From Candidatus Hodarchaeota archaeon (lineage in GTDB: Archaea; Asgardarchaeota; Heimdallarchaeia; Hodarchaeales; Hodarchaeaceae): DNA of 50,241 nucleotides. The first letter of the stretch is position 1, and each line of letters opens with the position of its first letter. The notes beneath the pieces were generated by a model. That model was not told the origin of the DNA. It ran no database searches and saw only the letters and a list, made by a program, of their open reading frames with translations. Shown piece by piece: positions 20,901 to 23,900 of the stretch. The translations under genes were made by a program, and so were the position numbers. Where the stretch lies: contig JAEOTC010000146.1 in the NCBI GenBank assembly GCA_016840035.1, positions 1 through 50,241 of the forward strand, in the 5' to 3' direction.

Positions 20901-23900
20901 TCAGAAATACCATCAGAATCAGCGTCAAGACCCATGGCTCCACTGTCTTTCTGATCCTCCGGATCACTCGGAGTCAGCTCCAAGGGAGAGGGGTCTAGTG
21001 GTTTCCACTCAAATTCTATTTCCCAATCGGCAAATAGGAATGTGAGCGTCACACTGAACCGCAGTATGATTTCCAAGAAAATCTTAAGCGGCACCGGGTT
21101 CACCAAATCCTGGAAAAACGTCAGAATAATCTCCATACTGAAATCAAACGATATCCCGACGATGAACAGGTCAATTCCAAAGTGTACCGCTAGACCTAAC
21201 GTAATTTTTAAGGTGAATGAGCCTTCTTCTGGCCCTGTAGCGGATGCTGCACGTTTTACAACCTCAACAAATATTCCAAAGGAGACTGTGACAGTGATTG
21301 CATCTAAACCTAGATATTCGCCTACAGCATTCAATGCACCAGCGGTTCCTCCTGTTAAGAAATCGAGTAATGTGAAAGTCCGGGAGACAGTTATAGTAAA
21401 ACTAAATCCCCACTCTATAACTTTAAAGAAATTATCAGTATCGAACGTTCCGCCTTTCAGCGTAAACAGCTCGAGTTCAAACCACCCTTTCCCTGAGAAC
21501 TCTAATTCTAGCCCTAGAGATTCTAGTAAAAACGCCATTAGCGGGTTTTCTTCGGTTCCAAACCCTCCTAATATGAACCCTGCCTTGAATGTCGGGATAA
21601 GTTCGAAGAATGAGAAAATTTCTGCGAAAAAGTCACCTATTCCACCACTAAATGGATTTAATCCTCCAAAAACAATTTCAAGTATCCAATCGGTGAATGC
21701 ATCCGTATCAAACCCAAAGTGGGGATATAATCCTAATTCAATACCGATCTCAAAGAGACTGAATCCTCCTAATCCTACAGGTAAGCTTCCTGACCATTCA
21801 GGAGGGATTAGATCTGAACTATCTAGAGCACTTGTTATTGCATTCATTAATTCATTAATCAAAATTTCAATTTGTCCACCCACCCAGTCCATAAGCATAC
21901 CAAAAAGCCATCTTAGTCCATCTGTGAAGATATCTTTTGCGTTAAAGACTATACCAAGGATTCCTTCCACAGCGTCTTTTAGATCACTTAATCCACTAAT
22001 TCCAGGTATCCCTAATCCACTAATAACACCATCTAATCCTGGAACCTGGTCTAATTGTCCTATAAGATCTTGAATCATCTCTCGTGCTGTGGGAAGTTCA
22101 GATGATTCTACACCAAAGAACTTAGGGAAGATAAATTCCAAGATATCTTTCACAAATGAAATATCTATACCCGCAAATTCTTTAATCAGACTCATTCCGA
22201 TATTCTGAATTAACCCTTGAAGTATACCTTGAATACTGTTATCTTTTGCAGACATAATTATTTGAAAGAGAGCTGATCCCATTTCTGCGAAAGTACGTAT
22301 TTTTTCGAGAATAGAGGTATCGATGCTCAAGCTGCTTGCTGTTGATAATAAGAAGTTAATTGTGTTATCTATGACTGCAGCTGGATCTGCAAATTGTTGT
22401 TTGAATTGATCAATAGTACTACTAATATATTGTTTAATTTCGTCCCTGTCACTTATTACTGCGATTATTGCAACAATGTTATTGACAGCTTTCTTGATTT
22501 TTGTTTCTTGTTCGGCTGGTATGTCTCCCATCATGTATTCTGCAACGGTTATTACTAGATCCATTGTTGCATTGAGATTTGGCAGTTGATCTTTATTTGT
22601 AAAGTCTCCATTAATTGCCCCAGCGATCATTGTGGCACCTTTTACGATCATATCTTGAATTTGTGTATCTTTAGCCCCATCACTATGGAATTGGAATCCT
22701 GTCTCGGTTTTAAACGTATCTAATGTGCCATCAAGGTTTGTGACAAAAGTATTAACATCTGTCATTGCTGTTTCTTTTGCTTCAGAAATTGCCATGTTTA
22801 CTTTCTTAATCAGGTCTTGTATTTGGTTGGCTGCATAAGTTATTTCACTAATCTGTTCATCGATTAACTCAAGAAGATAACCAAATACACTAGCAAGATT
22901 ATCCTCTGTTGGAAGATCCTGTGTCTTGTCTAAAGCGTCAGATACAGATCCCTCGGTGAGACCGATAGCAGACATAAGTAAATTCACAACAATTCCAATT
23001 AATTTACCCCAAGTTTGTGTATCCTGTGTACTCATAACTGATGCACCAGAACCTCCTCCAATAATGTTGAACAGGAAATCAATGAATTGAGGTAAATACT
23101 CTTTAATAGTATTCTTTAAATTTCCACGGGATAAGAAGTCCATTATTGATTTTAGTACAGAACTAATACCAGAAATATAGTCAGATACTTCGCCTACGTC
23201 TAAACCGAGTAAACCCAAGAAATGAGAAATAAGGGTATCTAAATACCGTTCGCTTATGACTGATAGCAAAGCATCAAGGAAATTTCCTCCTTCCTCTTTC
23301 ATCTCATCAATCAATGCAACTGATAAGTCCAGAATTTCAGTCAATATGGTTTTGAACCATCCCCAGTCTTCTGGAATAATTAAATCCAACAATTGGCCTA
23401 TTATATCACTGATGGCCGAAAAATCACCGCGTAAGAGAGGAATGGATTTTAATAGAAGCCCTACAAAAGGTTTCAACTCTTCTGCGAAGGGAATAAGGTC
23501 TTCTAACAGGACGAATAGATCATAGAGTGCGGATTCAACGGAAATATCATCTCCACTGAAGAACCCAAAAATGGCTTCTATAGCTCGAAATGCTAGTTCG
23601 ATTTGCTCCATGGCATCTTCGCCAAGATTAATCTCGTCTCCTACCATACCAATGAATATATCAAGTAATAAATCAATAATCCCTCCAATAGGACCTTGTA
23701 ATCCAGAGTCAATTGGTAAAAACCCGATTATCATGTCACCAATGCTAACTGATTCTTCTGTGGATGATTTTATATATAAGGCTGGTTTATTTTCATCAGG
23801 TAGCTCTCGTAACTGTTCTAAGGAATATTTTGGTTTTAATTCTGCTGGAAAACGCTCTTTCATCTCCTCATAGCGTTGTTGTTTTAGTACCAGGTCCTCT

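Follow-up and report, generated by a model that had tools for sequence, protein, structure and literature searches.

A conserved amphipathic beta-sheet block in a giant surface protein of Asgard archaea, tentatively read as a hydrophobic chamber

We analysed a 50,241-nucleotide stretch of DNA from a Candidatus Hodarchaeota archaeon (assembly GCA_016840035.1, contig JAEOTC010000146.1, positions 1 to 50,241; "the window" in what follows), in which gene A encodes a 2,224-residue protein with a block of long amphipathic beta-strands near its middle. An earlier note, made from the sequence alone, had drawn attention to positions 21000-21800, which correspond to residues 946-1213 of protein A, as a possible lipid-binding groove or membrane-inserting element. 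The amphipathic strand pattern of this block is real and exceeds what chance would produce, and the block is a family-specific alpha+beta domain. The reading to which we lean, while giving it somewhat less than an even chance, is that, in the distal head of what would be a type-I protein, the block forms a buried hydrophobic chamber that takes up lipid or other hydrophobic cargo. For the block itself, we infer that the oily face is buried, that a cavity exists and that lipid is its ligand.

Judged from its sequence, gene A appears to encode a giant type-I surface protein, with a signal peptide, an N-terminal domain, a helical tract, the beta block, TSP3 repeats, an immunoglobulin-like part and a transmembrane helix in that order. 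Residue n of the protein corresponds to window positions 24637-3n+1 to 24637-3(n-1). The main features are the following:

17963..24637, minus strand: gene A, 2,224-residue protein (open reading frame and translation)
24512..24577, minus strand: N-terminal hydrophobic segment, residues 21-42 (sequence segment; homologues with A-x-A-type signal peptides)
21818..23767, minus strand: amphipathic, acidic helical tract before the block, residues 291-940 (AlphaFold2, composition)
20993..21817, minus strand: beta block, residues 941-1215 (AlphaFold2 secondary structure, strand faces, shuffle test, conservation)
18383..20992, minus strand: TSP3 calcium-binding repeat region with many N-glycosylation sequons, residues 1216-2085 (Pfam TSP3_bac, conserved columns)
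18023..18079, minus strand: C-terminal transmembrane anchor, residues 2187-2205, followed by a short basic tail (sequence and homologues)

All eight strand motifs quoted in the earlier note were found in the minus-strand translation, between residues 948 and 1211 (window positions 21005-21796). The count of about 9-10 alternating strands with short Gly/Phe-rich helices between them was borne out by two AlphaFold2 models, both of which give ten long strands and five helices. The description of some strand faces as fully hydrophobic was overstated: the strands are one-sided, with one oily parity, and both parities are hydrophobic at a few spots only (e.g., residues 1170-1172, 1174-1175 and 1190-1192). 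Every strand has a period of two, with a mean Kyte-Doolittle value of +1.4 to +3.8 for one parity and -3.5 to 0 for the other. The period-2 hydrophobic moment exceeded 2.0 in 45 of the 258 windows of the block, compared with 4.9 +/- 4.5 (maximum 28) in 2,000 permutations of the block's own residues and with 24 of 1,956 windows in the rest of protein A. The alternation is also preserved column by column in 44 homologues with less than 60% identity, down to 36% identity. A 343-residue open reading frame with a GTG start overlaps the block on the opposite strand (21042-22073, plus strand) and probably represents a shadow frame of the conserved gene on the minus strand. It gives some footing to the idea that the block is a chance pattern or was read in the wrong frame, but on the minus strand ~2,000 codons are open and 76 genomes conserve this frame, the pattern lies above all 2,000 shuffles, and the block was modelled with a predicted local distance difference test score (pLDDT) of 82. 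We regard this idea as next to impossible; it is effectively refuted by the conservation of the minus frame together with the shuffle test.

According to AlphaFold2, the long strands of the block, ten in number, measure 8-19 residues; two further strands have 3 residues each, and five short helices are rich in Gly and Phe. Its parts are arranged as follows:

residues 948-956, 959-976, 1011-1024, 1043-1056 and 1072-1089, minus strand: first five of the ten long strands (AlphaFold2)
residues 1115-1129, 1138-1156, 1160-1177, 1185-1200 and 1204-1211, minus strand: remaining five long strands (AlphaFold2)
residues 978-991, 1000-1008, 1032-1041, 1090-1095 and 1102-1109, minus strand: five short helices (AlphaFold2)
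21371..21796, minus strand: N-terminal half of the block, residues 948-1089 (AlphaFold2, column statistics)
21296..21370, minus strand: Gly-rich helix-loop-helix, residues 1090-1114, L-L-D-F-L-T-G-G-x-G-G-G-x-L-N...G-L-D-A-I (column statistics)
21005..21295, minus strand: C-terminal half of the block, residues 1115-1211, five strands with short turns between them (AlphaFold2, strand faces)
21227..21259, minus strand: conserved hairpin loop, residues 1127-1137, V-K-R-A-A-x-A-x-x-P-E (homologue columns)

In the N-terminal half, five strands are joined by connections that hold three of the short Gly/Phe-rich helices. No other element of the block is as conserved as the Gly-rich helix-loop-helix that follows (mean entropy 0.85, mean top-residue frequency 0.78), within which D1092, G1097 and G1110 are invariant. 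The C-terminal half is the most hydrophobic part, with a grand average of hydropathy (GRAVY) of +1.3 over residues 1151-1200, and its last strand alternates aromatic and acidic residues and has a Trp at its end. The hairpin loop is conserved at K1128 (47/50), R1129 (36/50), A1130 (47/50), A1131 (46/49), P1136 (41/50) and E1137 (49/50). With its dibasic K-R followed by small residues, this loop looks like a possible protease processing site beside the most hydrophobic strands.

The composition of the block resembles that of a membrane protein. Its GRAVY is +0.65 (0.41-0.84 over 50 homologues) and 45% of its residues are Phe, Ile, Leu, Met, Val or Trp, whereas no 275-residue stretch in the soluble open reading frames of the window exceeds +0.22 and values of 0.6 or more are reached by integral membrane proteins only. 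The oily face consists mainly of Leu (23%), Ile (23%), Phe (19%), Val (9%) and Trp (4%), with Tyr outside the 12 commonest residues, and the polar face of Thr (18%), Ser (12%), Glu (11%), Gly (11%), Asp (9%) and Lys (7%). The oily face is the more conserved of the two (entropy 1.26 vs 1.94, p = 1e-7), and this holds in nine of the ten strands. Several aromatic positions are near-invariant (F962, F1053, F1065, F1070 and W1076), which together with the conserved oily face fits specific packing rather than a free surface. The embedded helices are amphipathic and hydrophobic (Kyte-Doolittle +0.6 to +1.7), and so would be able to cover a greasy sheet. Among 19 distant homologues, mean identity is 46% in the block, compared with 27% in the N-terminal domain, 22% in the helical tract and 21% in the C-terminal part. 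The block is thus the best-conserved non-repeat part of protein A, which argues that it is functionally important.

No known family accounts for the block. With Pfam on the block alone, only noise was obtained at E-values up to 10 (MerE 0.25, PspC 0.58). NCBIfam models matched protein A in the TSP3 part only, with none in the block, and the sequences of the PDB held no counterpart of the block, either for the fragment with phmmer (E up to 10) or for the family profile. In the ESM Atlas, the best scores (0.82-0.86) were to Bacteroidota clusters and lie in the noise range. The helical tract did match PDB chains; these were designed helical repeats only and were set aside as a compositional effect. 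The sole Pfam family on the whole of protein A is TSP3_bac (PF18884), from about residue 1230 onward, with 44.8 bits against a cut-off of 25 over five stretches that start at residue 1307; it describes the flanking region, not the beta block.

AlphaFold2 was applied to residues 880-1250 with 50 homologues (pLDDT 81.7, predicted template modelling score (pTM) 0.62) and to a larger construct of 951 residues (290-1240; 35 rows, pLDDT 70, pTM 0.51). Both models agree on a 58-residue helix followed by the elements of the block. The structure prediction proposed earlier for the monomer of about residues 940-1225 thus yielded one curved up-and-down sheet at a pLDDT of 81.7. The homodimer of residues 940-1225 was predicted with a score of 0.00, which gives no verdict and counts neither way. 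In the larger model, the helical tract contains ~28 helices, the last of which is the 58-residue helix that runs into the block (pLDDT 70). The tract is itself hydrophobic, with a GRAVY of +0.35 and 40% Phe, Ile, Leu, Met, Val and Trp.

Structural comparisons of the block model were dominated by outer-membrane proteins. When it was compared with 48,161 representative chains using VIA-align, the top 50 were all outer-membrane barrels (Z 8.2-10.1), and a second look gave CymA at Z 11.7-11.9 (root-mean-square deviation (rmsd) ~5 Å, ~197 residues), FhaC at Z 10.2 (3.2 Å over 169 residues) and pentameric OmpA at Z 10.2 (3.7 Å); over the comparisons of both models, CymA spans Z 11.7-12.0 and EspP Z 10-10.7. 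The barrel alignments span 170-228 residues at Z 8-12 and rmsd 3.2-8 Å. A best Z of 7-8 is stated as common for unrelated models, and we read these matches as shared geometry, not kinship. Barrels of 14-22 strands were fitted with an rmsd of 3.2-5 Å and autotransporters of 12 strands less closely, with 6-8 Å; we therefore take the sheet, with its ten or so strands, for a curved segment that is open. The larger model had the same barrels on top in VIA-align, with a few helical proteins and bee vitellogenin in lower rows.

With Foldseek, which the earlier note had also proposed, the result depended on the construct. Nothing in the PDB fell below an E-value of 1e-3 for the block alone, for which FepA, EspP and BrkA gave the best rows; MTP and CETP ranked lower, and the matches to CETP (E 0.11, probability 0.03) and OrfX (0.12) were weak. 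For the helical tract plus block, large lipid transfer proteins (LLTPs) ranked first and made up all of the top five rows: lipovitellin (3.7e-4), MTP (1.4e-3, two chains), apoB100 (2.8e-3) and bee vitellogenin (4.3e-3). VIA-align compared the block with the cavity sheets of bee vitellogenin at Z 6.3. No repeating beta-groove (RBG) or AsmA chain was among the top 50 VIA-align rows, and a Foldseek search of viral structures (BFVD) gave nothing below an E-value of 0.03 and no fusion-protein match. On these models, the LLTP likeness is architectural, helices followed by amphipathic sheets, and nothing more. The lipid-cavity or barrel character claimed for the region has thus held in part: barrel-wall likeness, the LLTP rows and the hydrophobicity speak for it, but no match reached a level that shows membership (LLTPs with TM-scores of ~0.1 and VIA-align Z of 6.3 or lower; barrels at Z 8-12 and rmsd 3-8 Å).

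The position of the block within the protein was addressed through its flanks. Homologues of gene A have classic A-x-A signal peptides and a C-terminal transmembrane helix with a basic tail, and residues 21-42 of protein A are probably a cleavable signal peptide, as far as the sequence allows. Applied to the signal peptides of the homologues, the (-3,-1) rule would make the mature protein type I, with the N-terminal head as its free distal end. The suggestion that the region is held out on a TSP3 stalk is in this way supported. The DxDxDG-type columns of the TSP3 region are nearly invariant. Of the 17 N-x-S/T sequons in protein A, 15 lie within the TSP3 region and one in the 1,170-residue head (window 20993-24502). 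Across 20 homologues, the block has 9 sequons where 22 would be expected, whereas the TSP3 region (284 vs 125) and the membrane-proximal part (53 vs 19) have an excess of them, a comparison that is indicative only, as the 20 homologues are related. The same skew over all 20 suggests a heavily glycosylated stalk and a bare head.

According to the chamber reading, the approximately ten strands of 8-19 residues would form one continuous, strongly curved up-and-down sheet, equivalent to about two-thirds of the wall that a 14-16-stranded barrel would have. A conserved carpet of Leu, Ile and Phe (~74 positions) covers one side, and the other is small and polar (Thr, Ser, Gly, Glu, Asp and Lys). In the resting protein the oily face would not be free and would line a large hydrophobic interior, closed by the five short Gly/Phe-rich loop helices and the 650-residue amphipathic helical tract. 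Together these parts would make an acidic, glycan-poor and membrane-protein-like head of ~925 residues, holding lipid or other hydrophobic cargo and functioning like the lipid pocket of LLTPs. After cleavage of the signal peptide, this head would stand at the free end of the glycosylated, Ca2+-binding TSP3 region, which would be anchored by the C-terminal helix beside the propeller subunit B, the product of the adjoining gene. The reading is supported by the real and conserved amphipathic strands, the membrane-protein-like GRAVY of the block (+0.65) and of the helical tract (+0.35), the LLTPs in the top five Foldseek rows with the vitellogenin cavity sheets at Z 6.3, the sequon depletion in the block, the type-I topology and the conservation of the block.

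Several observations weigh against this interpretation. The Foldseek matches to LLTPs have TM-scores of ~0.1 and rmsd values of 35-40 Å, and LLTPs other than bee vitellogenin fell below the VIA-align top 50 (Z 6.1 or lower), beneath outer-membrane barrels at Z 8-12. The Pfam and PDB searches gave no sequence or profile link to an LLTP or lipid-binding family: neither Vitellogenin_N nor another LLTP Pfam family was found on the whole of protein A or its parts, and the family profile matched no LLTP chain in the PDB. The larger model is of moderate confidence (pLDDT 70, pTM 0.51), and the tight conservation of aromatic residues fits a solid, ligand-free core too. The lipid-related neighbour genes of the window, described below, are moreover not conserved elsewhere.

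The block may instead be a plain structural core or docking platform, i.e., a rigid hub with an ordinary, fully buried core that links the helical tract with the TSP3 region or serves as a dock for subunit B, and that has no lipid or membrane role. We consider this rather unlikely, though it accounts for the conservation pattern equally well. The conserved face is the hydrophobic one, with near-invariant Phe/Trp and Gly typical of tight packing, and positions on the polar face vary like a solvent-exposed surface; sequon depletion may equally mark a protein-protein interface, and the pairing and fusion of A with B point to a multi-subunit assembly. What it does not explain is the extreme hydrophobicity, which over the 50 homologues lies far outside the range of the soluble open reading frames of the window. 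The block also has ~74 large hydrophobic sheet positions for only ~47 helix residues, and strands of 14-19 residues with the curvature of a barrel wall are unusual for a simple sandwich.

A membrane-inserting element seems to us improbable. Here the block would be a transmembrane beta-barrel, either permanently or once triggered, and possibly completed by oligomerisation; it would serve as an anchor, pore or fusion-like device in the membrane of a partner cell (e.g., the outer membrane of a syntrophic bacterium) or in the cell's own. In four VIA-align comparisons of the two models, the top-50 rows were nearly all outer-membrane barrels, the best fit to 14-22-stranded barrels allows the sheet to be an open segment, and, as in the lumen of a barrel, Gly, Ser and Thr abound on the polar face. 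The aromatic/acidic alternation of the last strand with its final Trp, the distal position of the head on a long stalk and the NlpC/P60 domain carried by a variant of the family (P0086) can be added to these points. Outer-membrane protein barrels, however, have variable lipid-exposed positions and Tyr/Trp girdles and are hydrophilic overall. The block has an oily face that is 65% Leu, Ile and Phe, with almost no Tyr and 4% Trp, and so no aromatic girdle was found; this face is more conserved than the polar one, the reverse of lipid-exposed barrel surfaces, and the overall GRAVY is positive where a barrel would be hydrophilic. With 7-9 residues per strand, its hydrophobic stripes exceed the length required to cross a bilayer, and the VIA-align Z of 8-12 is modestly above the stated background of 7-8. 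Omp85/BamA (PF01103) was not found in the window's own genome, which is 87% complete and, being incomplete, cannot prove absence, while seven control bacteria scored. Published cryo-electron tomography of cultured Asgard cells has furthermore shown a single bounding membrane (bioRxiv 10.1101/2025.11.06.686947; PMC13716822). The block is therefore barrel-like in shape and not in chemistry. The most specific version, a pre-folded or triggerable amphipathic beta-barrel element on a long Ca2+-dependent stalk that inserts into the membrane of a neighbouring cell (e.g., the outer membrane of a syntrophic bacterium, or another archaeon) to make a contact, pore or lipid bridge, appears more improbable still.

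Three known systems bear comparison with protein A. Bacterial and mitochondrial outer-membrane barrels (CymA, FhaC, the autotransporter domains of EspP, BrkA and NalP, TonB-dependent receptors and BamA/Sam50) resemble the block in that their amphipathic strands alternate with period 2, follow one another as a long antiparallel meander of nearest neighbours and curve like a barrel wall, and they provide the best VIA-align Z (8-12) and nearly all top rows. In contrast to them, the block is without sequence or profile similarity, has a positive GRAVY, almost no Tyr and a more conserved oily face, and sits in the ectodomain of a type-I archaeal protein from a genome in which no Omp85 was found. 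LLTPs (lipovitellin/vitellogenin, MTP and the beta-alpha1 part of apoB-100) are built in the same order, with a long helical domain first and then large amphipathic beta-sheets that include short helices, and the head of protein A has a lipoprotein-like hydrophobicity. The helical tract of protein A is, however, twice as long, no global superposition was obtained, and the protein is membrane-anchored, extracellular and archaeal. The C-terminal half of gene A is a long TSP3 array, as in TSP3-repeat surface proteins (the thrombospondin-type calcium wire; CglD and MtsC/MtsD of Myxococcus). In the TSP3 region, the NCBIfam match to CglD, the TSP3-repeat adhesin of the Myxococcus gliding motor, was sub-threshold (149 bits vs a cut-off of 400). 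The likeness to CglD is limited to the repeats. The beta block was found only in ~50 Asgard-type clusters, and no TSP3-repeat surface protein of this group is known to carry it.

The protein family is restricted to Asgard archaea. A word-indexed search gave 76 proteins, nearly all of ~2,200 residues and all annotated as hypothetical, with named sources among Hodarchaeales and Heimdall-, Thor-, Loki- and Odinarchaeota metagenome-assembled genomes. An exhaustive phmmer search of the block against 1.84 billion cluster representatives returned 50 clusters, nearly all with the same architecture or fragments of it, and all cluster members that were looked up by name were Asgard. Of 301 genomes sampled from the phylum, 76 have the family, spread over 35 of the 70 genera; among the 90 high-quality genomes the count is 23. 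It occurs in 9 of 20 genomes of the window's own genus, which marks gene A as accessory. A literature search found no paper describing the family. Two candidates, a paper on Asgard START lipid transfer (PMC12139934) and the "integrin-like" fam15271 (PMC9258230), concern other proteins. An S-layer homotetramer has been reported for a Hodarchaeales isolate (bioRxiv 10.1101/2025.02.26.640444), and a link to protein A could not be made. The kind of domain, an amphipathic beta-meander resembling a barrel wall or lipid pocket, is already known; what is new is its setting in the ectodomain of an archaeal type-I giant surface protein with a propeller partner and no annotated family.

In most cases, cultured Asgard archaea lack an S-layer lattice; their coat consists of unidentified proteins to which cell-cell contact and the adhesion that crawling requires have been ascribed (PMC13716822; bioRxiv 10.1101/2025.11.06.686947). 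The A-B operon encodes two giant, co-inherited surface proteins, in one of which the beta block is the unique domain with the highest conservation. For an extracellular domain of an organism without an outer membrane, it is unexpected to combine the hydrophobicity of a membrane protein with the geometry of a barrel wall. If the block binds lipid or contacts the membrane of another cell, it would offer a concrete, testable molecule for the interaction of Asgard archaea with their syntrophic partners. Should the block prove to be a stalk-borne barrel element that inserts into the membrane of a neighbouring cell, archaea would have their first membrane-active protein of the beta-barrel type, and Asgard-partner contacts that bear on eukaryogenesis would gain a molecular handle. 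Even as a structural core only, the block would still be a new, unannotated domain family deserving a Pfam entry. The CglD match is of interest given the recently reported crawling motility of Asgard cells, with the likeness confined to the repeats as stated above.

Gene A is directly adjoined by its partner gene:

8426..17962, minus strand: gene B, 3,178-residue FG-GAP/beta-propeller protein (Pfam)

Four distant Asgard genomes also have A and B as a pair that abuts or overlaps, and in one genus the two are joined in a single frame of 4,350-4,900 residues. Such fusions include the proteins P0090/P0128 (4,348-4,360 residues) and open frames of 4,716-4,901 residues on three contigs (G254:C144, G149:C50 and G093:C28). 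The fused frame retains the C-terminal transmembrane helix of A and, ~57 residues further on, the signal-anchor-like segment of B, which would give a two-helix hairpin. Such a hairpin is topologically consistent with both ectodomains lying outside the cell, side by side, and the fusion is a Rosetta-stone hint that A and B may work together.

Beside the operon, the window holds several genes of lipid-related character (4209-5471 and 25989-32099): a GNAT + SCP2 sterol-carrier gene, three alpha/beta hydrolases and an AMP-binding, acyl-CoA synthetase-like gene. Around A-B in the four distant genomes lie other genes, unrelated to these (radical SAM, NAD kinase, ferritin, resolvase, asparaginase and ABC/FtsX), and for this reason the neighbourhood was not used as evidence. 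In one distant genome only (L017:1401-5076, minus strand), the A-B pair is immediately followed by a 926-residue FtsX-type permease and an ABC ATPase (MacB/Lol-like).

The sequencing runs listed for this DNA are of marine-sediment DNA, with no RNA among them. The window's own genome shows one copy of gene A only. Its genus often has a second paralogue, 34% identical and ~29 kb away (G139:C4 141592-142677 and 170467-171564; G256:C1 1647742 and 1676429; locus L018). Downstream of this paralogue lie an 846-residue beta-helix/NosD-like protein and a 913-residue open reading frame, and no homologue of B. The variant P0086 (2,800 residues) carries NlpC/P60 upstream of the block (E 3.7e-7, 30.5 bits vs a cut-off of 23) and PKD downstream of it, at residues 706-784 and 2318-2398. 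NlpC/P60 enzymes are often bacterial cell-wall hydrolases, or act on lipids.

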